64,000 bases of DNA from Deltaproteobacteria bacterium. Its GTDB lineage: Bacteria; Myxococcota_A; Polyangia; Polyangiales; Houyiibacteriaceae. The notes under the pieces are model-generated. The model searched no databases and had not been told where the DNA came from. It worked only from the letters and a program-made list of their open reading frames with translations. The translations under genes were made by a program, and so were the position numbers. Positions 37,118 to 54,411 of this stretch are shown here, piece by piece. Numbering within the stretch: the stretch's first letter is position 1; every line of letters starts with the position of its first letter. The stretch covers positions 668 through 64,667 of the forward strand of contig SHLP01000008.1 of assembly GCA_004283055.1 (NCBI GenBank). The letters are read 5' to 3'.

Positions 37118-37300
37118 CCCGATTCTTGCGGCCGAAATCGAAGGAGGCGGCCAATGCGTCCACCGCCCATGTGTTCGGAATCGAGTTGCAGTGCTCGGGA
37201 ACTTGGCCCAGCACTTGACGGTCCGTCGTATGAAAGGGAAACCTCCTCCAGCCCTCCACGGTTTCGCAATCGTGGAGCCTTTCCTCTCGAGCAAGAGACC

Positions 37301-39340: not shown

Positions 39341-41292
39341 GCGACCGTGGTCACGACTGGAAGCCGGAGCAGGCCCGCAAGTCCTTGCGCCGTTTGCTTC
39401 CGGAGCTCGAAGCCGCGTTTGCTCCCGAGCTCGAGCCGCTGGCCTTCGACTGGCACCGTTTCAAGAATCGGCTTCATCGCGAATGGGAGCGCCTGTTCTC
39501 GTATCTGCACGAGCTCTACGGCTGGCAGTACGATTTTCACTACACCCTGGAGCGCGTTCTTCGCTCACTGATCCAGTCCTGGCTCGAGCGCCCCGAAGCC
39601 TTGCGCCGCCTCGATGAGAAGCGTGAGGCGGACACCAACTGGTTCCAGTCCCAGGAAATGGTGGGCATCGTCCTCTACGTCGATCTCTTCAGCGACCACT
39701 TGGCGAAGCTCAAAGACCACATCCCGTACTTCAAGAAGCTGGGGCTCACCTATCTCCACCTCATGCCTCTCTTCGTCTCTCCCCATGGAGAAAACGACGG
39801 CGGGTACGCGGTAAGCGACTACCGCTCCATCAACCCCGACCTCGGAAGCATCGACGACCTCGAAGAAGTCACTTCGGCGCTGCGGGAGGAGGGCATCAGC
39901 GTGGTGCTGGACCTGGTGTTCAATCATACCTCCGACGAGCACCAGTGGGCCATGAAGGCCAAGTCCGGCGATCCGGACTTCATGGCCTTCTACTTCACCT
40001 TCCCCGATCGCGAGTTACCCGATCAATTCCAGCGCTATCTTCGCGACATCTTCCCCGAGGCGCGTGCCGGCAGCTTTACGTGGAACGAGGAGCTGGGGCG
40101 CTGGGTATGGACCACGTTCAACAGCTATCAGTGGGACTTGAACTACGCCAACGCGGAGGTCTTTCGTGCCATGTCGGAAGAGATGCTCTTCCTCGCGAAT
40201 CGAGGCGTAGAGGTTCTGCGATTGGACGCCGTTGCGTTTCTGTGGAAGCGGCTCGGCACCGACTGCGAGAATCAGCCCGAGGCGCACACGATCATCCGCG
40301 CATTCAACGCCATGGCGCGGATTGCCGCGCCGGCATTGCTCTTCAAGTCGGAGGCGATCGTCCATCCAAACGAGGTGATTCGATACGTCCACCCCGACGA
40401 GTGCCAGCTTTCGTACAACCCGCTGCTGATGGCGCTTCTTTGGGAGGCCCTCGCGACCCAGGACGCGCGGCTTCTCGGGCACTCGATGCGCACTCGGTAT
40501 CGTCTGCCCGCAGGTTGCGCCTGGGTGAATTACCTGCGCTGCCACGATGACATTGGATGGACTTTCGACGACGATGACGCGCGCAGCATCGGGATCGACC
40601 CGTCCGCGCATCGACGGTTTCTGAGCCGGTTCTACACCGGCGAATTCCCGGGCTCCTACGCGCGAGGAACGAAGTTCCAGCAAAACGCACTCACGGGAGA
40701 CGTCCGCGTTGCGGGGACGCTTTCGTCGCTGGCGGGTCTCGAGGATGCACTCGAACGCAACGACAGCGAGCTCATTGAACGCGCGGTCCGGCGTATCACC
40801 TTGCTGATGGGCATTCAGGTCAGCATCGGCGGGCTGCCGCTTCTGTATGCGGGCGACGAGTACGGAATGATCAACGACTACACGTATCTGAGCGATCCGC
40901 GAAAGGTAAACGACAGCCGCTGGGTGCACCGCTGCCGAAAGCGCTGGAAGGCGCAAGAGGATCTCGCTGACATCGACACGATCGAGTGGCGCTTCTTCCG
41001 TGAGACCTCGAAGCTATTCAAGCTTCGAAAACAGCTTCGAGCGCTGTACGACGGAGGCATGGAGGTGGTCGAGACGGGCAACCCCCATCTGTTTGCCTAC
41101 CTTCGGTCGCACGCCGATCAGCGAGTGCTGGTAGTCGCGAATTTCTCCGAAACGACCCAAGCTGCCGACGCTCGCTGCCTCGTTTCCTGGGTTCCCAAAG
41201 GTGAGGCGCTCGACCACTTGAGTGGGCAGCGCGTCACGCTCGTCGACGGGCTCGTCCTCGAACACCATCGCTCGGTCTGGCTGGAGGTCTGA
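39337..41292 (+). CDS. amylosucrase (GH13 subfamily 4-like sucrose:alpha-1,4-glucan glucosyltransferase)
   Basis: GLTYLHLMPLF..P.G.NDGGYAVSDYR.INPDLG, VLDLVFNHTS.EH.WA, WVWTTFNSYQWDLNY.N..VFRAM..EMLFLAN.GVEVLRLDAVAFLWK..GT.CENQPEAH and FKSEAIVHP match my recollection of Neisseria polysaccharea amylosucrase almost block for block. The GTG start overlaps the glgB stop (GTGA). Confidence 0.85.
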   Translation: MSDRGHDWKPEQARKSLRRLLPELEAAFAPELEPLAFDWHRFKNRLHREWERLFSYLHELYGWQYDFHYTLERVLRSLIQSWLERPEALRRLDEKREADTNWFQSQEMVGIVLYVDLFSDHLAKLKDHIPYFKKLGLTYLHLMPLFVSPHGENDGGYAVSDYRSINPDLGSIDDLEEVTSALREEGISVVLDLVFNHTSDEHQWAMKAKSGDPDFMAFYFTFPDRELPDQFQRYLRDIFPEARAGSFTWNEELGRWVWTTFNSYQWDLNYANAEVFRAMSEEMLFLANRGVEVLRLDAVAFLWKRLGTDCENQPEAHTIIRAFNAMARIAAPALLFKSEAIVHPNEVIRYVHPDECQLSYNPLLMALLWEALATQDARLLGHSMRTRYRLPAGCAWVNYLRCHDDIGWTFDDDDARSIGIDPSAHRRFLSRFYTGEFPGSYARGTKFQQNALTGDVRVAGTLSSLAGLEDALERNDSELIERAVRRITLLMGIQVSIGGLPLLYAGDEYGMINDYTYLSDPRKVNDSRWVHRCRKRWKAQEDLADIDTIEWRFFRETSKLFKLRKQLRALYDGGMEVVETGNPHLFAYLRSHADQRVLVVANFSETTQAADARCLVSWVPKGEALDHLSGQRVTLVDGLVLEHHRSVWLEV

Positions 41293-42812: not shown

Positions 42813-42883
42813 CCGAACTCGCTCTAAGGCCGAATGCGGAAAACGTCAGCGATCATTCGCCGATGTGTTAGTTTCGCAAGCAA

Positions 42884-43819
42884 ATGCTGCGAAATCGACG
42901 CGCTTTCGGAGGCTGGCTCACGGCCGCCATCGTTTTTTCTCTCCTCCCCGTGCCAGCTCTTGCGCAAGAAACCGAAGGTCAGAAGTCGATCTACGATATG
43001 CCGCCGGTCGAGGAGAGCCACATCGCAGCCAAGTACAAGGCCACGCTCGAGAAGCCGCCGAACGTCGAGTGGTTCCTCGGAGCCGAGCTCGGCTTCCTCG
43101 CCGTCGCCAGCCACATCGTCCAGCTCGGCAACGACGGGACGCGGTTCAACTACCGCGATCAGGGCGGCCAGGACGTCCTCTTTCCCTTCTTCCGTCTCAG
43201 CACCGAGCTCAAGTTCAAGGGCCGACATACGATTGTGTTCCTCTACCAGCCGCTGAAGCTGAGCGGGGAAACCGTATTGAGTCAGGAGACGACCTTCGAT
43301 GACGTGGTCTTCCCAGCGGGAACTCCTCTGAATTCGACCTACAGTTTCCCGTTTTGGCGAATCAGCTACTTGTACGACTTCCTGCGGCGCTCGGGCGACG
43401 AGGTCTCGATCGGCTTTTCGCTCCAAATCAGAAATTCGACGATCACGTTCACCTCGGCGGACGGCACGCTGCGCGCCGATCGCCGCAACATTGGGCCGGT
43501 GCCTGCGCTGAAATTTCGAGGTCGCTGGGCCTTTGACAGCGGGGTCTGGTGGGGGACCGAAATCGACGGGATCTACGCGCCGATCAGCGGGATCAACGGA
43601 AGTAGTAACGAAGTCACGGGGGCCTTGCTCGATGCGAGCCTTCGCGTGGGCTACGACTTCTCGGATCGGGTCGCCGGCTTTTTCAACGTGCGCTACCTGG
43701 CGGGTGGCGCCGTCGGAACCGACAGCACTCCGGACCCGGGGAGCGACGGCTACACCAAGAACTGGCTCAACTTCATCACGTTTAGCCTCGGCGTCGAGTT
43801 CCGAGCCATCCAGCGCTAG
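42884..43819 (+). CDS. hypothetical secreted, beta-rich (possible outer-membrane barrel) protein
   Basis: Signal peptide (WLTAAIVFSLLPVPALAQE). Alternating hydrophobic/aromatic strands run throughout (FRLSTELKF, TIVFLYQPLKL, WRISYLYDF, FSLGVEFRA). The antisense ORF 42824..43861 has Arg/Pro/Asp-biased composition and was rejected. Confidence 0.55.
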   Translation: MLRNRRAFGGWLTAAIVFSLLPVPALAQETEGQKSIYDMPPVEESHIAAKYKATLEKPPNVEWFLGAELGFLAVASHIVQLGNDGTRFNYRDQGGQDVLFPFFRLSTELKFKGRHTIVFLYQPLKLSGETVLSQETTFDDVVFPAGTPLNSTYSFPFWRISYLYDFLRRSGDEVSIGFSLQIRNSTITFTSADGTLRADRRNIGPVPALKFRGRWAFDSGVWWGTEIDGIYAPISGINGSSNEVTGALLDASLRVGYDFSDRVAGFFNVRYLAGGAVGTDSTPDPGSDGYTKNWLNFITFSLGVEFRAIQR

Positions 43820-44265
43820 ACGCCCAAGCCCGTGCCTGCGTCGAGTGTCCGGTACAGCCAATAGGTCACCAGGCCGGCTCTCGCCGACCAGGCAAGCGTC
43901 CTGAGCCAGTTGGTGCGGACGAGCATTCGCCAGGTTCCCTCGTCGAACCCCGACCCGAGCTGGCTGTGAGCGGGGACCTGCAGAAGAAAGGTCGAGGCCC
44001 AGATAAATGCGATCAGCCCGATGCCGAGCCAGATCTGCGCTGGAGTCTGGACTCGAAGCGGCGCCCAGAGAAAAGCCACGCTGGAAATCGCCTCAGCGAT
44101 CATCAGGGGCGCGACGATGATCGAGATCGAGCTCGAATGGTGCGCATGAAACGCAGGAAAGGACGCGGTGTCCATCCGAGCGAACCCCGGATACTGGACC
44201 AGCTGCACGAACCAGATGATGCCCGTCATCGCCCAGGTGGTCGCGACTTGGATGAGAAGCGTCAT
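43816..44265 (-). CDS. hypothetical integral membrane protein (4 TM, 149 aa)
   Basis: Four clear hydrophobic helices. Lies 9 nt downstream of the wHTH regulator gene on the same strand. Confidence 0.6.
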   Translation of the reverse strand: MTLLIQVATTWAMTGIIWFVQLVQYPGFARMDTASFPAFHAHHSSSISIIVAPLMIAEAISSVAFLWAPLRVQTPAQIWLGIGLIAFIWASTFLLQVPAHSQLGSGFDEGTWRMLVRTNWLRTLAWSARAGLVTYWLYRTLDAGTGLGV

Positions 44266-44274
44266 TCGAACATC

Positions 44275-44574
44275 TCAGGACCGGACCACCCGCACGAGCT
44301 CGCCGACCGAGTGTTCGGACTCGATGGGGTGGCGAAGCGGAATTCCTTCGTTGACTTCGTAATGGGTGCGGCGTCCCTGACGGGTTCGAACGATCACACC
44401 GGCCTCTTCCAGCTCTCTCAAGATGCGCTGCACAGCGCGCTCGGTGACCCCCACGGCCTGCGCAATCTCCCGCACGCGCACGTTCGCGTCGCGTGCGATG
44501 CAGACCAGCACATGCCCGTGATTACTGAGAAAAGTCCACGCCGCGGGGGATTCTGAGCTACCATTTCTCTTCAT
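44275..44574 (-). CDS. small winged-helix transcriptional regulator (99 aa), paralogue of 32094..32414
   Basis: AAWTFLSNHGHVLVCIARDANVRVREIAQAVGVTERAVQRILRELEEAGVIVRTRQGRRTHYEV aligns without gaps to the 32.1-kb regulator. Confidence 0.7.
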   Translation of the reverse strand: MKRNGSSESPAAWTFLSNHGHVLVCIARDANVRVREIAQAVGVTERAVQRILRELEEAGVIVRTRQGRRTHYEVNEGIPLRHPIESEHSVGELVRVVRS

Positions 44575-44597
44575 ATGACTTCTTTTACATAAAACAC

Positions 44598-44623
44598 AAT
44601 ACAGGTATTGACAAGCCTGTATT
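44598..44623. promoter_or_regulatory. perfect inverted repeat AATACAGG-N10-CCTGTATT enclosing a TTGACA box (candidate operator/divergent promoter)
   Basis: Arms at 44598-44605 and 44616-44623. The spacer tattgacaag reads TTGACA on the + strand and TTGTCA on the - strand. It sits in a strikingly AT-rich 70-nt gap between the regulator and the ABC gene. Confidence 0.5.
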
Positions 44624-44644
44624 TTATATCATGTTTCGAAAATC

Positions 44645-46327
44645 ATGAATGAAAGGCCTGCAGCGACCCAGGGTGCCCGTCCGTCTCCGCTTCGCCGCGC
44701 GCGCCAGCTGCTCGCGCTCGACGGGCAGGACATCGGCGTCATCGTCGTGTACGGCGTGGCCCTCGGCCTTCTTTCGCTCGCGGTGCCAGTCGCGGTCCAA
44801 TCGCTCGTCAACACCGTCGCCTTCGGGTCGCTGATTCAGCCCCTCGTCGTCCTGACGGCCCTCCTCGCGGTCGCCCTCATAGGCGCCGCCATCCTACGCG
44901 CGCTTCAAGTGCGCGTGGCGGAGATGCTGCAGCGCAGGCTGTTTGTCCGCATCGTGACGGAAATCGGCGCTCGTCTTCCGCGCGTGAGCGGCACGGCGCT
45001 TCGGGATGCGAACGGGCCCGAGCTGCTGAACCGTTTCTTCGACGTGTTCACTACCCAAAAGAGCGTGGCTTCCTTGCTCCTCGGCGGCGTTGACGCCGTC
45101 CTCATCGCGCTGGTCGGGTTGATCGTCCTCGCGTTCTATCATCCAGCGCTCCTCGCCTTCGACATCGTGCTGATCATTGGTGCGGTGTTGGTTCTGATTC
45201 CGCTCGGGCGCGGGGGCACGCGCACGAGCGTCGCCGAGTCCAAAGCCAAGTATGCCGTGGCCGGATGGCTCGAGGAGATGGCGAGGCATCCGCTGTCGTT
45301 CAAGCTTGCGGGAGGCGAGGAGCTCGCGCGAACCCAAGTGGAGACGCTGGCGAAGTCGTATCTCGACAAGCGGGATCGCCACTTCCGAGTCGTGTTTCGC
45401 CAACTGGTGGGTGCCTTCACCATCGAAGTCGTGGCTAGCGTCGCCTTGCTCGCCGTGGGCGGTTTGCTCGTCATCGAGCGCCAGCTGTCCATTGGTCAGC
45501 TCGTCGCCGCTGAGCTCATCGTGACCGCCGTCGTTGCGTCGATCGCAAAGCTGGGTGGCAAAGTCGAGATCTTTTACGATCTGGTCGCCGCCGTCGACAA
45601 GCTTGGAGAAATTCTCGACCTGCCCTTGGAGCGCCCTGATGGCGAAATCTTGCCGCCCGGGGGTGGGCCTCGCATTGGGCTCGTCGTCGACGAGGTGGAA
45701 ATCGAGTCAGAGCCAGGTGTGGCGCCGGTTCGAGTCTCATTCAAGGTCGCGCCCGGCGAGCGCTTGGCGCTAGATGGGGCGGAGCGCGATACCAACGCCG
45801 CAATCGACGCGATCTTTGGACTGCGCGCGCCTTCCGCAGGTGTGATCGAAATGGACGGGCATGACGCGCGAGACCTTTCTCTGCGCGAGCTCCGCCGGCG
45901 CGTCGCGCTCGTCCGCGGCACGGAAATTTTTCCGGGCTGCATTCTCGACAACCTGCGCGCTGCAAACGCCGACCTCACGGCGGAGGAAGCATGGGACGCT
46001 CTGAGTCAGGTCGGCCTGGCGGACGCGGTGAAGTCTCTTCCCGAGGGCCTGCAAACGCCAATCCTTCGAGATGGGTCGCCGCTGTCCCGCACCCAAGCGA
46101 TTACGCTCACCATCGCTAGAGCCGTTGCAGGTAAGCCCTCGCTGCTGATTCTCGACCGAACCCTGGATCGGATCGACTCGGAGGCTGGCATCCGCGTTGC
46201 AGACCGCTTGTCGGCGAATCGCGAGAGCGCGCTTCTGGTCGTTGCGGCGGACCCCGCCGTTCGAGGACGCATGGATCGCTTCATTCAGATTTCGGGCACC
46301 GTTCTGCACGAAGGAGAGGCAGCATGA
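44645..46327 (+). CDS. ABC-exporter-like protein (type-1 TMD plus NBD-fold domain with all ATPase motifs degenerate)
   Basis: The N-terminal 6-TM exporter domain is intact. The C-terminal domain is collinear with ABC NBDs, but the motifs differ. The Walker A position reads LDGAERDTN, the signature reads LSRTQ, and Walker B reads LLILDR. The H-loop region reads VVAADP. Confidence 0.8.
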   Translation: MNERPAATQGARPSPLRRARQLLALDGQDIGVIVVYGVALGLLSLAVPVAVQSLVNTVAFGSLIQPLVVLTALLAVALIGAAILRALQVRVAEMLQRRLFVRIVTEIGARLPRVSGTALRDANGPELLNRFFDVFTTQKSVASLLLGGVDAVLIALVGLIVLAFYHPALLAFDIVLIIGAVLVLIPLGRGGTRTSVAESKAKYAVAGWLEEMARHPLSFKLAGGEELARTQVETLAKSYLDKRDRHFRVVFRQLVGAFTIEVVASVALLAVGGLLVIERQLSIGQLVAAELIVTAVVASIAKLGGKVEIFYDLVAAVDKLGEILDLPLERPDGEILPPGGGPRIGLVVDEVEIESEPGVAPVRVSFKVAPGERLALDGAERDTNAAIDAIFGLRAPSAGVIEMDGHDARDLSLRELRRRVALVRGTEIFPGCILDNLRAANADLTAEEAWDALSQVGLADAVKSLPEGLQTPILRDGSPLSRTQAITLTIARAVAGKPSLLILDRTLDRIDSEAGIRVADRLSANRESALLVVAADPAVRGRMDRFIQISGTVLHEGEAA

Positions 46328-47661
46328 GGGAGTCATCGGTCAACTCCGAACGCTGGTCGGGCTTCGAACGCCACACGCTTCCCGAGTCGCTGGGCGTGCC
46401 GGCGCCGCGACGAACCATCGTCGTAGCTAAGACACTGGTTGCGGTCTTCCTGCTGTTCACCGTTGCTGCGCTTCTTGCGCCCTGGACCCAGAACATCCGA
46501 GGGCGTGGGCGGGTGTTCGCATATGCGCCCGAACAGCGACAGCAGCCCATCGAGGCGACCATCTCCGGGCGCGTCGAGAAGTGGTTCGTCCAAGAGGGCA
46601 CCCAGGTCAAGAAGGGCGATCCCATCGTGAAGCTGACCGACAACGATGAGTCGATTCTCGACCGTCTCGGGGCGGAGCGAGAAGCGATCGAGCTCCGTCG
46701 GATGGCGCAGTCGCAGCGCGTCGGGTCGCTGAGCAACCGGATCGAGTCGATTCGTCGCTCGCAGCGCGCGGAGATTTCGGCCGCCGAATCGAACGTTCAA
46801 ATCGCTCAGCGCGGCGTCGACGCAGCCGTGCAGGATGTTGGCGCAGCGACCGCCGAGGTCGAAACCAACGAGCTCAACCTTCGCCGCCAGCGCGGCCTCT
46901 TCGACGACGGCCTCGCCTCCCAACGCGAGTTCGAGCTTGCGGAGCTTGCCGCGCGGCAGAGCAGGGCCAAGCTCGCATCGGCGAACGCGAAGCTCGCAGC
47001 TTCAAAAAACAGGCTCGCGCAAAGCCGCGCCGCGCTACGACGGGTCATTGCGTCCACCGAGGCGGAAGTCGAAAACGCCGAGGCGAGCTGGCGGAGTGCA
47101 GAGACGGAGGTCGCATCCACCAACGCGGCGCTGGCACGCCTCGACGTGGGCATTTCACGTCAACAGGCCCAGACGATTACGGCGCCCCTCGACGGGACGA
47201 TTCTTCGCGTCGTCGGGCGTCTAGGAGGAGAGCAGGTCAGCCAAGGCGAGGTCCTGGCTGTGCTCGTGCCTCTGACCGAAGATCGCGCGGTCGAGCTCTA
47301 CGTCGATGGCAACGATGCCGCCCTGATCAAACCCGGCAGCCCAGTCCGTCTTCAGTTCGAAGGTTGGCCGGCGGTGCAGTTCTCCGGCTGGCCGTCGGTC
47401 GCGGTCGGGACGTTTGGCGGGCGGGTTGCGTTCGTGGATGCAAGCGACGACGGGCGCGGAGACTTCCGCATCGTCGTCGTGCCCGACGCGGCGGACAGCC
47501 CCTGGCCCGCGGCGAGCTATCTGCGTCAAGGCGTCCTGGCCAAGGGCTGGGTTCTGCTCAAGCGGGTCTCGCTCGGCTTTGAGATCTGGCGGCAGTTCAA
47601 TGGCTTTCCGCCCACGACGGACCCACCCCCGATGGCCACGACTGGCAAGGAGGCCAAGTGA
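46324..47661 (+). CDS. HlyD-family membrane fusion protein
   Basis: N-terminal TM anchor, a GDPIVKL lipoyl-like motif, a long Ala/Arg/Glu coiled-coil hairpin, and the beta-barrel block ITAPLDGTILRV. ATGA overlap with the ABC gene. Confidence 0.85.
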   Translation: MRESSVNSERWSGFERHTLPESLGVPAPRRTIVVAKTLVAVFLLFTVAALLAPWTQNIRGRGRVFAYAPEQRQQPIEATISGRVEKWFVQEGTQVKKGDPIVKLTDNDESILDRLGAEREAIELRRMAQSQRVGSLSNRIESIRRSQRAEISAAESNVQIAQRGVDAAVQDVGAATAEVETNELNLRRQRGLFDDGLASQREFELAELAARQSRAKLASANAKLAASKNRLAQSRAALRRVIASTEAEVENAEASWRSAETEVASTNAALARLDVGISRQQAQTITAPLDGTILRVVGRLGGEQVSQGEVLAVLVPLTEDRAVELYVDGNDAALIKPGSPVRLQFEGWPAVQFSGWPSVAVGTFGGRVAFVDASDDGRGDFRIVVVPDAADSPWPAASYLRQGVLAKGWVLLKRVSLGFEIWRQFNGFPPTTDPPPMATTGKEAK

Positions 47662-49097
47662 GCGCTGCCGCGCGCTTGGGCGTTCTTGTCTTAGGAGCGC
47701 TTACGCCAGCCCTTGCATTCGCGAACGAGGAGCCGGGAGGGCCGCTTCATTTCGAGGAGGTTCTGCAATCGGTCAAGGCGCACGATCCGCGAATACGGCA
47801 AGCGGTTGCGCAGCTTCGCAAGGCCGAGTCCAAAACGATGGAGGCCCGTGGCGCGTTTGATCCAAGGATCGACGGCGACGGGAAGATCCTCACCGGCGCG
47901 TACTACGACACGCGCAGTGCCGACGTGGAGCTTCGGCAGCCGACGACGCTGTGGGGCTCGGAGATATTCGTGGGCTATCGCGTCGGGCTTGGCATCAATG
48001 AGCGCTGGCCGACGTATCGGGACGATCAGACGCTCTCCAGCGGCGAGGTCCGAGCGGGAATCGAGGTGCCAATCTGGCGGGGTGGGCTCACCGACCCCGA
48101 CCGTGCCGAGCGTGCCCGCGCGATTCAACTCGAAGAAGCTGCTGGTCAAGGCCTGTCGGCCGCACAGCTCAACCTCGAGCTCGCGGCCGCGCGGACGTAC
48201 TGGAGCTGGGTAGGCACGGGGCGGAACCGAGAGGTTGCCAGATCCTTACTCGACCTGGCCGAGCAGCGAGACGCTCAGCTCCGCCGTCGTCTCAAGGCCG
48301 GTTCAATCGCTTCCTTCGATGTATTGGACAACGAGCGAATCCTGCTCGAGCGAAAGGCGTTCCTCGTCGCGGCCGAGCGCGCCTTCCAGAAAGCGACCTT
48401 CGACCTGTCGCTCTTCTTCCGCGACTCGGAGGGGCTTCCTATCGTTGCTGACGCTCAGCGCCTTCCCGAGACGCTGTCCGTCGAGCCGCTCGAAGGGCTT
48501 TCGGTAGAGCGTGCGGTGGACGAAGTCCTCGCATGCCACCCCGAGCTCGAGCGAGCGCGTGCCGAGCTCGAAGCCGCCGAGGTCGATCAAAGGCTCGCCC
48601 GCAACGAGCTTGGGCCCGAGCTCAGGGCGCGATTCGTATACTCGCGCGATCTCGGCGCTCTAACCGACACCGATCTCGATTTCACGCTTCCGGGCAACGT
48701 GTACGAGGCGGGACTGGCTCTTTCGATGCCCTTGATTTTTCGCGAGGAGCGCGGCAGGGCCGGGCTCGCTCGAGCGGAGGTTGCCGAGAAGCAGGCGCGG
48801 GTGCGCTTGGTCTCGGACCAGCTCCGCGCGAGAACGCTCGACGCGGCGTCGGCCGTAGAGGCCGCTCAGCAAAGAGCCAAGCTGACCGACGCGGTGGTCG
48901 ATACGGCCGCAGAGCTCGCCGAGGGCGAGCGACGCCGATTCGAGGTCGGGTCGAGCAACCTCATCTTCGTCAATCTGCGCGAGCAGCAGGCGGCCATGGC
49001 GCAGATGCGCTTCATCGAGGCCCTTGCGCTCGCCGAGATTGAGCGCACGCGCTGGGAGACGACCACGCGCGTCCAGTGCGGCGACGTCGCTCGCTGA
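47658..49097 (+). CDS. TolC-family outer membrane factor
   Basis: Signal peptide, then two repeats of the OEP helical/beta pattern (LHFEEVLQSV..HDPRI..A...L..A....). GTGA overlap with the MFP gene. Confidence 0.85.
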   Translation: MSAAARLGVLVLGALTPALAFANEEPGGPLHFEEVLQSVKAHDPRIRQAVAQLRKAESKTMEARGAFDPRIDGDGKILTGAYYDTRSADVELRQPTTLWGSEIFVGYRVGLGINERWPTYRDDQTLSSGEVRAGIEVPIWRGGLTDPDRAERARAIQLEEAAGQGLSAAQLNLELAAARTYWSWVGTGRNREVARSLLDLAEQRDAQLRRRLKAGSIASFDVLDNERILLERKAFLVAAERAFQKATFDLSLFFRDSEGLPIVADAQRLPETLSVEPLEGLSVERAVDEVLACHPELERARAELEAAEVDQRLARNELGPELRARFVYSRDLGALTDTDLDFTLPGNVYEAGLALSMPLIFREERGRAGLARAEVAEKQARVRLVSDQLRARTLDAASAVEAAQQRAKLTDAVVDTAAELAEGERRRFEVGSSNLIFVNLREQQAAMAQMRFIEALALAEIERTRWETTTRVQCGDVAR

Positions 49098-49179: not shown

Positions 49180-49650
49180 ATGGAGCTCAACACCGGTATC
49201 TCATCCGACCACCGCGAAAAGTTGGCAGCCGAGCTTTCGAGGCTCTTGGCTGACAGCTACACCCTCTATCTCAAGACCCACAACTTCCACTGGAACGTGA
49301 CTGGGCCGATGTTCCAAACTCTCCACTCGATGTTCGAGCTACACTACACCGAGCTCGCGATGGCGGTCGACACCATCGCCGAGCGCATTCGGGCCCTCGG
49401 TGTTCTCGCGCCCGGAAGCTACGCGGCCTTTGGAAGGCTAGCGAGCGTCCCAGACACCGACGCGGCTCCAAACGCGCTCGAGATGATCAGGCTGCTCGTC
49501 GAAGCGCACGAGACGGTGATTCGCACCGCGCGCGAGGTGGTGCGTGCCGCAGAAGATGCCGGCGATCAGGCGACGGCCGACCTCGGGACGCAGCGCCTCC
49601 AGCTTCACGAAAAGACGGCTTGGATGCTTCGGAGTCTGCTCGAGGACTGA
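49180..49650 (+). CDS. dps: Dps (DNA-binding ferritin-like protein)
   Basis: LSRLLADSYTLYLKTHNFHWNVTGPMFQTLHSMFELHYTELAMAVDTIAERIRALG carries the canonical Dps ferroxidase-site residues. Confidence 0.9.
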   Translation: MELNTGISSDHREKLAAELSRLLADSYTLYLKTHNFHWNVTGPMFQTLHSMFELHYTELAMAVDTIAERIRALGVLAPGSYAAFGRLASVPDTDAAPNALEMIRLLVEAHETVIRTAREVVRAAEDAGDQATADLGTQRLQLHEKTAWMLRSLLED

Positions 49651-49661
49651 GTCGTCCGTTC

Positions 49662-49686
49662 CGGAGCGATTTGGCAAACCGCTCCG
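49662..49686 (+). terminator. hairpin after dps (7-bp stem CGGAGCG/CGCTCCG, 11-nt loop)
   Basis: Read directly from the sequence, 12 nt after the dps stop. There is no U-tract, so it may be a partial terminator or attenuator ahead of 49706. Confidence 0.35.
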
Positions 49687-49705
49687 CAGGCCCTAAGGAG
49701 GGTCG

Positions 49706-50482
49706 ATGGCTAAAGGGGTTCGCGACGTGATACGGCGCGCTGCACGTGGCAGCTCGTGGTCACACTTCATGGACTATGCGTCGCCCGCCTTGTTCGAAGT
49801 CATGCCCATGCGAGCGCTTCTCGCTCAGGGAAAGGAATTTGTCTCCAATGGGTCAGACGGGCATCGCTACGCCAAAGTGCGAGAAGGGATCGCGTCGTCA
49901 CTTCGCGCGCGCGGCCTCGATGTCGAGCTGGGGCCTCAGGAAAACAAGGCGAGGGGCCTCGTTCCGGCTGAGCTCTCCGAAGACGCCAGGCGGCAGACGG
50001 GCGATCGCATCCTCGAAATCTACTTCACGCAGATCTTTGCGGGCGATGAAACGATTCTCGACCTGCGCGGCGATTCTTTCTCGACATCCGAAGGGGCCAG
50101 TCTTCAGTGGCGCCCGAAGGCGTTTTACGTGCAATGGCAATCCGACTTCCTGCAAGGGCTTCGAGACCTCTACGCCGGATTTTACCTCGACGAGGAGGCA
50201 CGCTTCGAAGCGGGCTTGCACCGGCTCGGCCTTCAGAATTCCGGCGATGCGCTCGTGAGCCATCTCGGCAGCGGCGATCAGCGCAGTGTCCGGTTCGAGA
50301 CCAGCGCGTTTCACACGAGCTTTCACGACACCTTTTTGGCCTGCCGCGACCGAGGCGTGGCGCTTCATCGGAACTTCCTCGCGCTCGGCATCTATTTGGT
50401 GTGCCTCTACGACGTGCTCGAGTCGCTCGAGCTAGAGTTTGATGTGCGCGGCGCGTTTGAGAGATCGTGCGTGAGCTGTTAG
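49706..50482 (+). CDS. uncharacterised protein, paralogue A of an unrecognised ~260-aa family
   Basis: Shares long collinear blocks with 59980..60771 (YFTQIFAGD / YFTQLFQGD; LRDLYAGFYLDEEARFEAGLHRLG / VRDVYAGFFIDDQAQFQAGLRKLG; RNFLALGIYLVCLYDVLESLELEFDVRGAFERS / RNFVAFGLYLLSLHELLESLDCSFDVRSAFMRS). Confidence 0.65.
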   Translation: MAKGVRDVIRRAARGSSWSHFMDYASPALFEVMPMRALLAQGKEFVSNGSDGHRYAKVREGIASSLRARGLDVELGPQENKARGLVPAELSEDARRQTGDRILEIYFTQIFAGDETILDLRGDSFSTSEGASLQWRPKAFYVQWQSDFLQGLRDLYAGFYLDEEARFEAGLHRLGLQNSGDALVSHLGSGDQRSVRFETSAFHTSFHDTFLACRDRGVALHRNFLALGIYLVCLYDVLESLELEFDVRGAFERSCVSC

Positions 50483-50488
50483 CAGCCG

Positions 50489-51454
50489 ATGAGCCTACCA
50501 CCGCCAAAATCTCGAAAACTGCTTCTCACTGGCGCGACCGGTTTCGTCGGCCGGCATCTCGATGCGGCACTTACCGAGACGAGCTGGCAGGTCATTCGTG
50601 CGACCAGAAATCCAAAGACGGCTTCGCAGCCCGGCTGGGTCTACCTCGACGTCTCCGACCCGAGCTCGATCGACCCGGCTATCGCGGGCTGCGACGCTGC
50701 CGTCTACCTGATCCACTCGATCGACGACTCCGAGGATTATCCGGAACGCGAAGCGCTCGGAGCCAAAGCGTTTCTCGCGGCGGCCGAGCGGGCTGGCGTG
50801 CGACGCATCGTCTACCTCGGCGGCGTTGCGCCAAGGGAAAAACCGTCGAGGCATCTTCTGAGCCGATTGAACACGGGCGAGATTCTGCGGTCGGGGGCGG
50901 TCTCGACCGTCGAGCTTCGATGCGGGCTCATCATTGGTGCGGGAGGCAGCTCGTGGATGATGGTCCGCGATCTTGCCGCGAGACTCCCCGCGATGCTTTT
51001 GCCTCGCTGGCTTCAGTTCTCGTCGTGGCCCGTGTGGATCGAAGACGTCGTTCTCGCGATCGCGCGCGCGCTCGATCTGCCAGGCCAACAGAGCGTGTGG
51101 TACGACGTGCCGGGGCGAGAGCGAATGACCCATGCCAACTTCCTTTCGCGCATCGCCAAGAGCATGGGCAAAGACCCAAGGCTCATCGGCGTGCCGGTGA
51201 TCACGCCGAGGCTCTCGAGCTACTGGATCGCGCTCGTGACCCGGGCGGATTTGGCGCTCGCGCAGGAGCTCGTCCAAGGGCTCCAAAGCGACTTGGATCC
51301 GAGCGGCGAAACGATCTGGGAGCGCCTCGGTGACGAGCGCCCAACGGAGTTCCAGACTTCTGTGTACCAGGCGCTCGAAGACGAGACAGCCGCCAGTGTC
51401 CCGACGCCGAAATTGGTGCGACGAATGCGTGACCGATTGAAGGGCGACGCCTAG
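50489..51454 (+). CDS. NAD(P)-binding (NmrA/atypical SDR-like) protein
   Basis: LLLTGATGFVGRHL glycine-rich motif and an extended-SDR layout. Starts 6 nt after paralogue A. Confidence 0.8.
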   Translation: MSLPPPKSRKLLLTGATGFVGRHLDAALTETSWQVIRATRNPKTASQPGWVYLDVSDPSSIDPAIAGCDAAVYLIHSIDDSEDYPEREALGAKAFLAAAERAGVRRIVYLGGVAPREKPSRHLLSRLNTGEILRSGAVSTVELRCGLIIGAGGSSWMMVRDLAARLPAMLLPRWLQFSSWPVWIEDVVLAIARALDLPGQQSVWYDVPGRERMTHANFLSRIAKSMGKDPRLIGVPVITPRLSSYWIALVTRADLALAQELVQGLQSDLDPSGETIWERLGDERPTEFQTSVYQALEDETAASVPTPKLVRRMRDRLKGDA

Positions 51455-52081
51455 GTGGAGCGGCTCGAGCGAGTCGAGGCCGTCGCGCTCGCCGCTTCAG
51501 TGGCAGCGTTTTGCGTGGCGATGGGTCTGCGCGAAGTCCTCAACATCTGGATCGGAACCGGCGCCGCCGCGCTGACCGCCTTGCTTGCGCTGTGGTTCGG
51601 CGCGCGTCCTGTGCTTCGATCCAACTTTCGGTCGCCCGCTGCGAAGAATCTGCTCGTCGGGCTTTCCGTCGGGGTACTGATGTCGATCGCGACCTGGTGG
51701 CTGTATCCCATCAGCGTGTCACTATTCCCGCCGATTCAAACCGAGGTCGAGACGCTCTACGCCCTGCTTCGTCAAGCTCCGGGGCCGGTTCGTGCCTTCC
51801 CCGTGCTCCTCTTGGTGGTTGCGGCGGAAGAGCTCGTCTGGCGCGGCGTTGCGATCGATCTCTTCTCGAAATCGCTCGGCCCCTGGCGCGCGATGGTGGT
51901 CTCGGCTCTTCTGTATGTTCTTCCGCAGGTCGCGCTGCGGTCGCCCTTGCTCATCATCGTCGCTCTGTGCTGCGGCCTCCTGTGGGGAGCTTTGCGGGTA
52001 CAAACCAAGGGCCTCGCCGCGCCGTTGGTTGCTCACCTGGTCTGGAACAATCTGGTGTTCGTCTGGCACCCCGTGGCCTGA
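51455..52081 (+). CDS. CPBP-family intramembrane glutamic endopeptidase (CAAX protease-like)
   Basis: Polytopic. Motif 1 is AAEELVWRG and motif 3 is VAHLVWNN. The GTG start immediately abuts the preceding stop. Confidence 0.75.
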   Translation: MERLERVEAVALAASVAAFCVAMGLREVLNIWIGTGAAALTALLALWFGARPVLRSNFRSPAAKNLLVGLSVGVLMSIATWWLYPISVSLFPPIQTEVETLYALLRQAPGPVRAFPVLLLVVAAEELVWRGVAIDLFSKSLGPWRAMVVSALLYVLPQVALRSPLLIIVALCCGLLWGALRVQTKGLAAPLVAHLVWNNLVFVWHPVA

Positions 52082-52099
52082 GAGGCGCGGCAGCGGTTC

Positions 52100-53320
52100 C
52101 TAGGTGATTGTGAATGACGGCTCTTCTCCGCGGAGGATACGGGTCAGGTCGCCCCGAACCACTCGATTTCCAACCTCCGAGACAAGCTGGCTTGCACCGG
52201 GTACGCGGCGGCGAATCCATTCGAATGGCGCGACCGCTGCGCGAATCGGATAGACCGAGTACTGCCAGAGATCGTTGGGGATGCCGAGGTCGTCTGCGAT
52301 CTCTGGGCCGTTGAATGCGCGCGCGAGCCCGTTGTGGATCCGACTCACCGCAAGCGCGACGACGGGGGGTGCCTTCCCGTTCGCGTTCTGCCCCGGCACC
52401 TTCAGAAGCTGCTCGGTCAAGGCGCGCGAATCGTCGTCGGGCCCGGGCTGTACCAGCCGAAGAAGATCGGCGAGGCGCCGAGTCTTCCCTTCGCTTCCGA
52501 GCTGCTCGAGCAGCCACGGGTCGACGCCGCTCAAGTGTCCACAGTATCGCCACAACGCGAGAATGGCTTCTCGCTCCTCCGCAGTGAGGTAAAAACCGAG
52601 ACGCTGCGCACCGTCCATCATGAGGAGCGAAAACTCCAACAGAGTCCCAAACATGTCGGCCTGGTTGATCGGCAGTCCCCACAGATCGGTGCGCCACCTG
52701 CCCGAGTCCAAGCAAGCGCGCCGCACGTGTGAATGGATCAAACTCACGCGCAGTGAGATCTCCCTGCCCGGGCGTCCAGGTCGAAGACCGTCGACCTGCG
52801 TGGCCTCACTAACGAAGCGCGCCGTCTCGGCGAGCCGCCGCTGAGGGCGGCCGATGAGCTCCCCGGTAAACGCCAGCGGTTTGACGGCTGCGCTCGAGTG
52901 ATACCCGTTGATGAGAGACCACGCGCTGAGGACGATCATGCCGAGGACTCCGAATCGCTGGTAGGCAAGCGCTCCGCTGCGGATCTGATCAAAGTCGACC
53001 CAGGCTGGAAGCGCATCGGCGCGCTCGAAGAATGCTCTGAGCTCTAATGAAGCTTCCGGAACCGCTGAAATGCCGTCGCGAAGAGCGCGTTCGAACTGGG
53101 ACTGGGCCCACTCGCCGTGGCGTTCGATCCATCGAACGAGCGCATCGGACAGCGGGTCTCCAGCGAGGTAAAAGCCTGCGTAGCGATCGGAATCGTCTCC
53201 GAAGCGCCGCCGGGCTTCCTCCCTGTTTTGATACCGATTTGGGTAGTCGGACTCGTTCATGGGCACGGTCAACCTAAGGCTCGGAGAGACATGCGGCCAG
53301 GTCCGGGCCGGCAGGCTCAT
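52100..53320 (-). CDS. DUF2236 / MpaB-family oxygenase domain protein
   Basis: About 400 aa. The pattern LRVSLIHSHVRR ... WG.PINQ.DM..TL..F resembles the DUF2236 (MpaB / rubber-oxygenase-like) family. ATGA overlap with the upstream DUF1295 gene. Confidence 0.7.
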   Translation of the reverse strand: MSLPARTWPHVSPSLRLTVPMNESDYPNRYQNREEARRRFGDDSDRYAGFYLAGDPLSDALVRWIERHGEWAQSQFERALRDGISAVPEASLELRAFFERADALPAWVDFDQIRSGALAYQRFGVLGMIVLSAWSLINGYHSSAAVKPLAFTGELIGRPQRRLAETARFVSEATQVDGLRPGRPGREISLRVSLIHSHVRRACLDSGRWRTDLWGLPINQADMFGTLLEFSLLMMDGAQRLGFYLTAEEREAILALWRYCGHLSGVDPWLLEQLGSEGKTRRLADLLRLVQPGPDDDSRALTEQLLKVPGQNANGKAPPVVALAVSRIHNGLARAFNGPEIADDLGIPNDLWQYSVYPIRAAVAPFEWIRRRVPGASQLVSEVGNRVVRGDLTRILRGEEPSFTIT

Positions 53321-54204
53321 TGCCGAGGTGGGCGGGGAATCAGCACCGGCGTCTGGTCCTTGTACCGGCGATAGCCTTCTTCATCGCCCCATCGTTCATC
53401 GGACCGCTTCTCGAGGAGCGGAATGCCGCTTACGCGTGTGAGCAACACGATCACGAAGATTGGAGAGATCATCGTGGCCCATTGCCAGCCAACGAGCGTC
53501 GAGGCTGCGATCAGAGCCACTCCAAACCAAAGGACGATTTCGCCGAAATAGTTCGGGTGCCGTGACCAGGCCCAGAGCCCGGTGTCAACGTACCGCCCCG
53601 GGTTCGCCGCGCGAAACTCGCTTTTCTGAAGGTCGGCGATGACTTCAATCGCAAAGCCGGTCGCCCAGACCACAAGGCCGATTGCGTCGAGCAGGCCGAA
53701 CGGTGACGGCTTCACCGTCGTGATCGCGGCAAGCGCCGCGCAAAGCGTCAAAAACACCCAAAAGCCTTGAAGGGTCCAGGCGATCAGAAACCGCGAGGCG
53801 CTCGGCTTGATTTCGTCGAAGCGGGGATCGGAGCCCGCATTTTGGATGCGCCGGAATAGAAAGCTACCGAGGCGCGAGGCCCAAATGAAAACCAAAAGCG
53901 CGAGGAGGATGGAGCGGCCATCGTTCGGGCGGGAAGCGAAGAGAGCAAAACCCGTGACCAGCATGTACGTCAGGCTGCCCACGAGATCGTAGTAGTGCTC
54001 GGTCTGTTTCAAGTAAGCCGGCACAAATGCAAGCCACTGCACGCCGAACGCGATCGCAGCGCACGAGAAGAGGATCGAGATACCGCCCGTTTGTGCGCCG
54101 CCATGCCCCCCGGCCCAGGCTACGACGGCAGCGACCGTCACCGCGCCCGAGATCACCCCCGCTGCAAGCGCAACTCGTTGAAATCCCATGAGTCCTTGGG
54201 CCAT
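53317..54204 (-). CDS. DUF1295 membrane protein (steroid 5-alpha-reductase / ICMT-like fold)
   Basis: YYDLVGSLTY, FIWASRLGSFLFRR, DPRFD and GLWAWSRHPNYFGEI..W.G are DUF1295 hallmarks. The ATG at complement(54202-54204) was chosen, and the longer track ORF (to 54393) was discarded. Confidence 0.8.
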   Translation of the reverse strand: MAQGLMGFQRVALAAGVISGAVTVAAVVAWAGGHGGAQTGGISILFSCAAIAFGVQWLAFVPAYLKQTEHYYDLVGSLTYMLVTGFALFASRPNDGRSILLALLVFIWASRLGSFLFRRIQNAGSDPRFDEIKPSASRFLIAWTLQGFWVFLTLCAALAAITTVKPSPFGLLDAIGLVVWATGFAIEVIADLQKSEFRAANPGRYVDTGLWAWSRHPNYFGEIVLWFGVALIAASTLVGWQWATMISPIFVIVLLTRVSGIPLLEKRSDERWGDEEGYRRYKDQTPVLIPRPPRQ

Positions 54205-54411
54205 AGCAGCAGAGGGTGCCGTTTGTCGAACGTCCCCCGAGACGGGCAGGGGACACTCTGGTGGGCGCCCGCGTCCGTCGCGGTTACCGCATCCGGAAGG
54301 GGCACACGGGAAGCTGACGGCGAGCATGGAGTCGGCTACGATCCTCGCAGCAGGCGGGTATTCGAGCTTTCGCAAAGAAATGCAGCGGTTCATGGAGTCC
54401 AGGAGTCGAAA

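Follow-up and report, generated by a model that had tools for sequence, protein, structure and literature searches.

The 64,000-nucleotide stretch of contig SHLP01000008.1, from a deltaproteobacterium of the order Polyangiales (hereafter the window), contains a three-gene operon resembling those of type I secretion systems (T1SS), the first gene of which encodes an ATP-binding cassette (ABC) exporter-like protein that has lost every ATPase motif. In the list of open reading frames (ORFs), all three genes lie on the plus strand: the ABC-like gene (gene 1, 44645-46327), a gene for an adaptor, or membrane fusion protein (MFP), of the HlyD family (gene 2, 46324-47661), and a gene for an outer membrane factor (OMF) of the TolC family (gene 3, 47658-49097). 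The stop codon of gene 1 and the start codon of gene 2 share the ATGA at 46324-46327 (GCATGAGG), and the stop codon of gene 2 and the GTG start of gene 3 share the GTGA at 47658-47661 (AAGTGAGC); the translational coupling described in an earlier note on this DNA can be read directly from these overlaps. Shine-Dalgarno-like sequences are found upstream of gene 2 (GAAGGAG) and gene 3 (AAGGAGG), and none was found in the 70-bp region before the start codon of the ABC-like gene. Overlaps of this kind speak for the three proteins being produced together. A scan for intrinsic terminators 3' of the OMF gene found none.

The proposed identities of the three products were all borne out by Pfam matches above the respective cut-offs (ABC_tran, HlyD_3 and OEP). 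The adaptor (445 aa, assigned by Pfam and synteny) matches HlyD_3, Biotin_lipoyl_2 and HlyD_D23 with 46.1, 37.5 and 32.4 bits, each score exceeding its cut-off, and reaches 89 bits against TIGR01843 (type_I_hlyD), under its cut-off of 208. With lipoyl/barrel-sandwich and coiled-coil hairpin domains and an N-terminal transmembrane (TM) anchor, it has the predicted make-up of a HlyD-family protein. The OMF (479 aa) matches OEP with 136.9 bits in two stretches and carries an N-terminal hydrophobic signal peptide that ends at AFA-NE, the lipobox Cys being absent; two OEP repeats and a signal peptide place it in the TolC/OEP family. The three T1SS-type components (ABC, HlyD-type MFP and TolC-type OMF) are thus encoded together in a single overlapping operon.

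The AlphaFold2 model of the ABC-like protein, built from a 58-sequence alignment (mean predicted local distance difference test score, pLDDT, 86.8; predicted template modelling score 0.77), contains TM helices at residues 27-59, 64-113, 133-165, 167-214, 224-277 and 283-324, with intracellular extensions, followed by residues with the alpha/beta topology of a nucleotide-binding domain (NBD). From the model, Foldseek and conservation, residues 1-335 (44645-45649, plus strand) comprise the six long TM helices of the transmembrane domain (TMD) and the intracellular domain with its coupling helices; residues 336-560 (45650-46327, plus strand) comprise a variable linker and then the pseudo-NBD. In a Foldseek search of the PDB, only type-IV ABC exporters were found at probability 1.0, with TM-scores of 0.76-0.87 over HlyB, PCAT1, TmrAB, MsbA and Sav1866. 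The best match was HlyB of the HlyB/D complex (8dck_A; TM-score 0.87, rmsd 2.8 A), followed by PCAT1 (0.86-0.87) and TmrAB (0.86), at 18-23% identity in the best superpositions. Exporter models of NCBIfam align to residues 22-550. On the evidence of the model, the gene 1 product is a true, structurally complete homologue of the ABC half-transporters of T1SS and peptide exporters, with the NBD fold (PF00005) and the six-helix exporter TMD that characterize the ABC superfamily. It begins 13 residues ahead of the conserved TMD, and an N-terminal C39 peptidase or C39-like domain is absent. The Pfam match to ABC_tran (35.2 bits, cut-off 25) covers residues 364-504, and that to ABC_membrane (19.9 bits) falls under the cut-off of 28.

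In contrast to the fold, the catalytic chemistry appears to be missing altogether. Motif positions were set by a phmmer alignment to both NBDs of BSEP, and the strings reported at these positions in the earlier note were recovered there. The Walker A position reads LDGAERDTN, with GAERDTNA opposite GSSGCGKST of BSEP and one residue shorter; the position of the Walker A Lys is an invariant Thr in close orthologues. The Q-loop position reads VALVRGTE (LVRGTE opposite IVSQEP), the signature position LSRTQ (opposite LSGGQ or LSRGE), the Walker B position LLILDR (opposite LLLDEA, with Arg replacing the catalytic Glu) and the H-loop position VVAADP (VVAAD opposite IVIAH, with the His gone). Likewise, neither the A-loop aromatic residue nor the D-loop Asp is conserved, the D-loop position (DRID) being variable among orthologues. 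All seven NBD motifs, namely A-loop, Walker A, Q-loop, signature, Walker B Glu, D-loop and H-loop, are therefore replaced in the predicted protein, and no intact motif was located by Pfam, by the BSEP alignment or by the AlphaFold2 model with Foldseek. A functional ATPase would need Walker A, the Walker B Glu with the Q-loop and H-loop, and the signature with the D-loop; each of these is lacking here. By fold and homology the protein is an ABC half-transporter of the HlyB/PCAT lineage that, going by its predicted sequence, falls short of an ATPase on every count, so that neither ABC ATPase nor canonical T1SS is a suitable classification.

Could these replacements be an artefact, or the mark of a decaying, non-functional copy? 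The absence of all catalytic motifs, in a domain that evolves 3-4 times faster than the TMD, is what such explanations have in their favour. The 560-codon frame is unbroken, the two other frames are interrupted by stop codons at the Walker A position, and an independent assembly encodes a 99-100% identical protein (P0001; locus L004), which rules out a frameshift or assembly artefact; the earlier note had already argued from the stops against a simple frameshift. Decay is ruled out by clade-wide conservation and by dN/dS, the ratio of nonsynonymous to synonymous substitution rates, described below: more than 120 protein clusters have the same motif state, dN/dS is well below 1 in every domain, and the operon and its regulator are conserved. 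We regard this explanation as practically negligible.

A search of 5.8 billion proteins returned more than 3,000 matches to the ABC-like protein. The best 120 of them are 68-99% identical to it, measure 526-565 aa and come from Polyangiales/Myxococcales metagenome bins, and the dead motif state is common to the more than 120 protein clusters at 68-99% identity. About 50 orthologues from Polyangiales/Sandaracinaceae have the same dead state, and among 78 near-full-length proteins compared, the consensus motif set is restored in no member of the clade to which the window protein belongs. When 1.84 billion cluster representatives were searched with a profile, 2,367 matched at E < 1e-30, the best 150 with scores of 500-664 bits. 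In these wider relatives the picture is mixed: the cultured orthologues from Cystobacterineae (Cystobacter, Archangium and Myxococcus; 47-51% identity) and those from Planctomycetes keep GK[ST] and often D-E or the His. The dead motifs are accordingly common to the orthologues of the close Polyangiales/Sandaracinaceae clade and not to the distant ones.

The representatives behind the motif tally over 228 family members were ranked with a dead-clade profile, which biases the counts toward degenerate members. Arg occupies the Q-loop position in 155 of the 228, Lys in 20 and Gln in only 7; directly after the Walker B Asp, 72 members have Gly, 59 Glu, 44 Arg and 18 Asp. A strict Walker A motif is found in 131 members, the joint set of Walker A, D-E and H-loop His in 22, and Walker A without the catalytic Glu, Gln and His in 62. 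On a quick neighbour-joining tree from TMD identity distances, the window protein lies within a clade of some 50 leaves, all without Walker A, and at least ~33 changes of Walker A state are required, as opposed to 73 with shuffled states. Repeated loss of Walker A and the rarity of the Gln and Glu suggest that ATP chemistry was repeatedly dispensable while the operon was kept. The family is thus a spectrum, of which the Polyangiales/Sandaracinaceae clade is the fully dead end.

Most relatives are 700-760 aa long owing to an N-terminal extension of ~170 residues, for which neither Pfam nor a PDB profile search gave a sequence match. Its model (pLDDT 89) has a C39-like fold, with the HlyB C39-like domain (3zua) as the nearest structure and the PCAT1 peptidase domain among the best Foldseek matches. 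No conserved Cys was found in this domain among the relatives (P0121-P0270); without the catalytic Cys, both the peptidase and the ATPase would be pseudo-domains in much of the family. The loss of this domain from the window protein had not been described in the earlier note, nor had the divergent regulator and its operator or the inverted domain conservation described below.

Selection was assessed by pairwise Nei-Gojobori dN/dS, with medians over 24 close orthologues. Within the ABC-like protein the median is 0.07 for the TMD, 0.51 for the linker (residues 331-362; range 0.3-0.5) and 0.22 for the pseudo-NBD, while the MFP has 0.11 and the OMF 0.14. The membrane part, residues 1-335, is the most constrained of the whole system. 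Between the window and its seven nearest relatives, dN/dS lies at 0.03-0.05 in the TMD and at 0.13-0.18 in the pseudo-NBD. The pseudo-NBD therefore changes 3-4 times faster than the TMD and is the fastest-changing folded part of the ABC-like protein; judging from these ratios, it is maintained by purifying selection, less tightly than the membrane domain. The suspicion that this is a maintained pseudo-ATPase, and not a decaying gene, is thus supported by clade orthologues that share the dead motifs under purifying selection, and it withstands all the refuting conditions that the earlier note had set.

In ABC transporters, the NBD is normally the best-conserved part. Here the family-wide pairwise identity (228 members) is 53% for the TMD versus 39% for the NBD, so the usual pattern is inverted. 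Fully intact members show 54% versus 47% and fully dead members 52% versus 35%. An alignment of 13 sequences (69-100% identity) has residues 20-330 almost invariant and the NBD-like half more variable, although the latter contains clade-specific blocks (DAIFGL, IExDGHDxRDL, LVRGxEIFPG, DNLRA and LDRTLD). Among the 150 representatives, at ~45% identity, the TMD and intracellular domain contain 109 positions that are at least 80% conserved, including both coupling-helix regions, PELLNRFFD and HPLSFK. Family-specific polar residues lie at or near the periplasmic helix ends (Gln52, Asn56, Tyr165-His166-Pro167, Asp173, Gly284-Gln285 and Glu290). Glu290, in TM6, is 95% conserved, equally in members with and without Walker A, and PCAT1 has Asn at this position. 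The "ordinary 6-TM exporter domain" of the earlier note is thus a six-TM exporter fold indeed, by AlphaFold2 and Foldseek, but it is not ordinary, as its conservation is unusually strong.

A scan of one genome per GTDB species yielded 257 relatives, and 80 loci were analysed. Their hosts are Myxococcota (including isolates of Myxococcus, Cystobacter, Archangium and Polyangium), Planctomycetota with Phycisphaerae, Acidobacteriota, an Oligoflexia bin and a few proteobacterial bins. Across several phyla (Myxococcota, Planctomycetota, Acidobacteriota and others), most of the 80 loci have the genes in the order ABC-MFP-OMF: the MFP gene lies 3' of the ABC-like gene in 70 loci, the OMF gene occupies the third position in 61-68, and the 4-nt overlaps are retained in close loci. 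A downstream OMF gene was not detected in nine loci that have the ABC-like and MFP genes (L051, L054, L058, L061, L064, L065, L067, L068 and L077), which come from Planctomycetota, Phycisphaerae and one alphaproteobacterial bin.

Two records in this set call for caution. Locus L045 (BNCN01000001.1), labelled 'Comamonas sp. KCTC 72670', encodes an ABC-like protein that shares 92% identity with its counterpart in Myxococcus vastator (L048); mislabelling or contamination of the record is more probable than a betaproteobacterial host. The metagenome-assembled genome JBGUEF01 (isolate 35D-01) carries three copies of the operon with dead motifs (L006, L025 and L033; 84%, 70% and 77% identity to the window protein, respectively), which are either paralogues or products of a mixed bin.

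Upstream of the operon and divergent from it is a gene for a 99-aa winged-helix regulator of ArsR/MarR-like type (44275-44574, minus strand), recognized by Pfam and synteny. In Pfam it matches HTH_24 (35.6 bits) and MarR (31.7 bits); among NCBIfam models the ArsR/SmtB model HTH_metalloreg (NF033788) comes closest, with 35.9 bits, under the cut-off of 55. This gene adjoins the ABC-like gene in 45 of the 80 loci, mostly in divergent orientation, and its product is, from sequence, probably the local repressor of the operon. The AT-rich 70-bp region between the two genes (44575-44644) contains an imperfect 48-bp palindrome (44587-44634) with arms of 19 nt (44587-44605 and 44616-44634, 79% complementary) centred on TTGACA. 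It is nearly invariant across 26 orthologous loci, where coding dS is 0.6-1.6. A consensus sigma-70 scan of the control region found no standard promoter, and the assignment of this putative operator as a promoter as well is accordingly the less direct of the two; operator plus promoter is nonetheless the probable function. Regulator gene and palindrome lie outside the coordinates given in the earlier note, yet form part of the system.

LysR-type neighbours were seen in some 10 loci. Locus L081, whose ABC-like protein (P0162) has intact motifs, carries a divergent LysR regulator in place of the winged-helix protein and, 88 nt ahead of the ABC gene and in the same orientation, a 103-aa ORF (7601-7912, plus strand) that is HPF/RaiA-like by eye. 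In the window, a gene for a 149-aa predicted multi-pass membrane protein (43816-44265, minus strand) begins 10 nt past the regulator stop codon and may be co-transcribed with the regulator; it matches no known family, and its conservation is limited to the 13 closest loci.

The earlier note had found neither a second ABC gene nor an obvious cargo gene beside the operon, and both observations stand. The 64-kb window is devoid of further ABC genes and, in all frames, of GxxGxGK[ST], and in 79 of the 80 loci there is no second ABC gene within 10 kb on either side; the sole locus with further ABC genes, two of them, is L073. Two upstream ORFs (728 and 651 aa), considered by size as heterodimer partners, are GlgB-like and alpha-amylase-family enzymes. 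By ORF clustering of the 80 loci, the only conserved genes are those for the ABC-like protein, the MFP, the OMF and the 99-aa winged-helix protein, with no conserved linked cargo gene or GG-leader peptide gene among them, and no RTX repeat cluster is found in the window. The linked cargo with a C-terminal signal, RTX repeats or GG-leader that would mark a T1SS thus appears to be absent from the sequence, although an unlinked cargo is possible. Two candidates for cargo were rejected: a 196-aa ORF (43966-44556, plus strand) is an antisense shadow of the regulator gene, and a 345-aa ORF (42824-43861, minus strand) looks like a shadow of the plus-strand ORF at 42884-43819.

Among the closest known systems is the HlyB-HlyD-TolC T1SS (with the PrtD and LssB types), which shares the ABC-MFP-OMF operon, a HlyD-family adaptor with an N-terminal TM anchor and a TolC-family channel, and whose HlyB gives the best superposition on the ABC-like model. 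In contrast to the window protein, HlyB is an obligatory ATPase with canonical Walker A and B motifs, Q-, H- and D-loops and signature, and has a C39-like domain; nor was a linked RTX or C-terminal-signal cargo found here. The closest sequence relatives are the PCAT1/NHLP exporters (TIGR03796 and TIGR03797), PCAT1 being the best PDB match to the TMD and among the top fold matches. TIGR03797 (NHLM_micro_ABC2) is the best NCBIfam match, with 151.4 bits, far from the cut-off of 709.4, and intact-motif relatives score 160-200 bits against it; the T1SS models give the window protein 90-130 bits versus cut-offs of 510-725. The nearest models for family members in general are those of LssB, NHLP and HlyB-type exporters (130-210 bits versus cut-offs of ~700), and no NCBIfam model reaches its cut-off for the window protein or for the intact-motif relatives. 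Unlike PCAT1/NHLP systems, the operon lacks a peptidase domain, GG-leader peptide genes and a second ABC subunit, and its NBD is dead.

Partial losses of the same kind are known from TM287/288, TmrAB, Rv1273c/72c and BSEP, which share the type-IV fold, appear among the top Foldseek and phmmer matches and have the catalytic Glu, His and signature replaced in one NBD. In such degenerate-site heterodimeric exporters, both NBDs retain Walker A, one site remains fully consensus, and the partner is encoded by an adjacent gene (PMC7756269). The window protein, in contrast, has no Walker A, its signature is dead, and no partner gene was found in the window. ATP-free working is established for the SbmA/BacA (SLiPT) proteins, whose ABC-exporter-type membrane domain is driven by the proton gradient (PMC8442886, PMC13316013). 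These share the ABC-type TMD with the window protein and are the only established precedent for the working proposed below, but SbmA is an NBD-less importer outside any tripartite assembly, and the window protein has a complete pseudo-NBD; no match to SbmA_BacA (PF05992) was among the Pfam results at E <= 1. In genetic layout the locus also resembles EmrAB-TolC and AcrAB-TolC, with a divergent winged-helix gene, a palindrome, an adaptor and a TolC-type channel. EmrAB-TolC, of the major facilitator superfamily (MFS), is a tripartite pump with a HlyD-family adaptor driven by the proton motive force (PMF); it and AcrAB-TolC, which belongs to the resistance-nodulation-division (RND) superfamily and is likewise PMF-driven, have divergent or adjacent winged-helix repressors acting on a palindromic operator. 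In contrast to both, the inner-membrane component encoded in the window has the ABC fold, not that of MFS or RND proteins.

We tentatively favour, at a little short of an even chance, the interpretation that the operon encodes a regulated T1SS-like tripartite machine that works independently of ATP, by PMF coupling or facilitated transport, with the pseudo-NBD as a structural or regulatory module. The inner-membrane subunit descends from exporters of the HlyB/PCAT type, has lost the C39-like domain and all chemistry of nucleotide binding and hydrolysis, and would act as a homodimer. Its strongly conserved TM and intracellular domains would do the transport work without ATP, moving the substrate into the adaptor/TolC duct by coupling to the PMF or by facilitated export down a gradient; both the coupling and the direction of transport are inferred. 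The pseudo-NBD would be kept as a structural module or clamp docked on the coupling helices, possibly with a regulatory or ligand-sensing role, and the divergent ArsR/MarR-like protein, as a putative repressor bound to the 48-bp palindrome over the promoter, would set expression. PMF coupling in particular is conjecture. The early steps of HlyA secretion have been reported to depend on the PMF, and extracellular folding has been proposed to ratchet T1SS substrates.

Several points weigh against an ATP-independent machine. Contact with the adaptor or binding of the substrate could account just as well for the conserved Glu290, His166 and Asp173; to our knowledge, ATP-free polypeptide export is unprecedented for T1SS-type machines; and a canonical ABC partner encoded elsewhere in the genome, beyond the searched loci, is possible. 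In addition, the relatives that keep GK[ST] imply that the ancestor of the family was probably a working ATPase, as some members may still be, and the ranking by a dead-clade profile biases the family statistics to degenerate members. The earlier note had left three options, namely a scaffold or regulator, another source of energy, and an unlinked partner, and these cannot be separated by sequence alone, although the last is weakened because the signature is also dead and no second ABC gene lies within 10 kb in 79 of the 80 loci.

Of the competing explanations, the one that survives best is that the protein is the inactive half of a heterodimer, in which a canonical half-transporter encoded elsewhere would supply ATP binding and hydrolysis, as in TM287/288, TmrAB or the NHLP ABC1/ABC2 pair. 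Known degenerate sites do occur in heterodimers or full transporters with one active site (PMC7756269). The best NCBIfam match, NHLM_micro_ABC2, is the second subunit of a two-ABC system, though far under its cut-off, and L073 has its two extra ABC genes beside the operon. Myxobacterial genomes encode many ABC exporters from which a partner might be drawn. A consensus ABC site, however, is formed by Walker A, Walker B and the H-loop of one NBD with the signature and D-loop of the other; because the signature (LSRTQ) and the D-loop of the window protein are dead as well, neither composite site could be canonical. The lack of any ABC gene or P-loop in the window, and of an ABC gene within 10 kb in all but one locus, points the same way, as do the translational coupling of the ABC-like gene to its own MFP and OMF genes and the homodimeric state of known T1SS ABC proteins (8dck). 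A heterodimer therefore appears unlikely.

The pseudo-NBD might instead have been repurposed as a sensor or gate for some other ligand or partner, opening or closing a passive TMD-MFP-OMF channel in a nucleotide-free variation on CFTR or SUR. Its dN/dS of 0.13-0.22 and its clade-specific conserved blocks would fit, and the 62 of 228 relatives with Walker A but without the catalytic Glu, Gln and His look like binders, not hydrolysers. On the other hand, no ligand site could be identified in the pseudo-NBD, which is the fastest-evolving folded part of the protein; most of its conserved positions are fold-core glycines and the coupling-helix groove, which a structural role explains equally well, and we consider sensing or gating distinctly unlikely.

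An anchor is quite improbable. If the ABC-like protein were only an anchor or assembly platform, with the HlyD/TolC duct tethering the envelope or taking up periplasmic substrates, the loss of all energy-coupling motifs and the want of a linked cargo gene would be accounted for, and Gln52, Asn56, Tyr165-His166-Pro167 and Gly284-Gln285 do lie at periplasmic TM ends, where the adaptor would make contact. But the whole intracellular domain, both coupling helices included, hardly varies from phylum to phylum, which is hard to explain for a passive anchor, and one TM helix would suffice for anchoring.

A broader reading, which we consider a rather doubtful possibility, goes further: a widespread T1SS-derived family in Myxococcota, Planctomycetota, Acidobacteriota and some Proteobacteria would have made ATP dispensable, the TMD serving as a secondary (proton-coupled) or gated passive transporter that feeds the HlyD/TolC duct and the NBD as a pseudo-enzyme scaffold. 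In that case the Polyangiales clade would represent a surviving stage on the way from primary ABC exporters to NBD-less transporters of the SbmA type, and no homodimeric ABC exporter with both nucleotide sites dead would have been known before it. What defines ABC exporters is the dimerisation of their NBDs driven by ATP, and we know of no degenerate site that does not stand beside a working one. The full-text literature covered, which leaves out most subscription journals, gave no account of an ABC exporter of T1SS or homodimer type whose NBDs are fully dead. Here, an exporter of the homodimer type lacks any recognizable nucleotide site, yet is conserved, is under selection and belongs to a complete secretion operon. 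It offers a natural system for asking what the membrane domain of an ABC exporter does alone, how a type I secretion-like duct can be energised without ATP, and how primary transporters evolve into secondary ones, a step postulated for SbmA/BacA. Should ATP independence hold, the significance would go considerably beyond that of an exporter variant with dead sites. Several hundred genes annotated as 'ABC transporter ATP-binding protein' or 'bacteriocin exporter' are also flagged by these results, since members of at least one large clade are predicted to be unable to bind ATP.

The GlgB-like branching enzyme and alpha-amylase-family genes (37154-41292, plus strand), whose stop and start codons overlap at 39337-39340, bear no relation to the operon, and their synteny is limited to the four closest loci. 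Downstream, the region 49180-54393 encodes a ferritin/Dps-like protein, a 258-aa protein of unknown function, an NAD-dependent epimerase-like protein, a CAAX protease (Rce1-like), an MpaB/Lcp-family oxygenase and a DUF1295/ICMT-like membrane protein; these genes are conserved among close relatives only and have no family-wide linkage to the operon. The plus-strand ORF at 42884-43819 encodes a signal-peptide protein that has no Pfam match and is kept in 13-14 close loci, and its minus-strand shadow (42824-43861) is Arg-rich and of low complexity, in window DNA of 63% GC.

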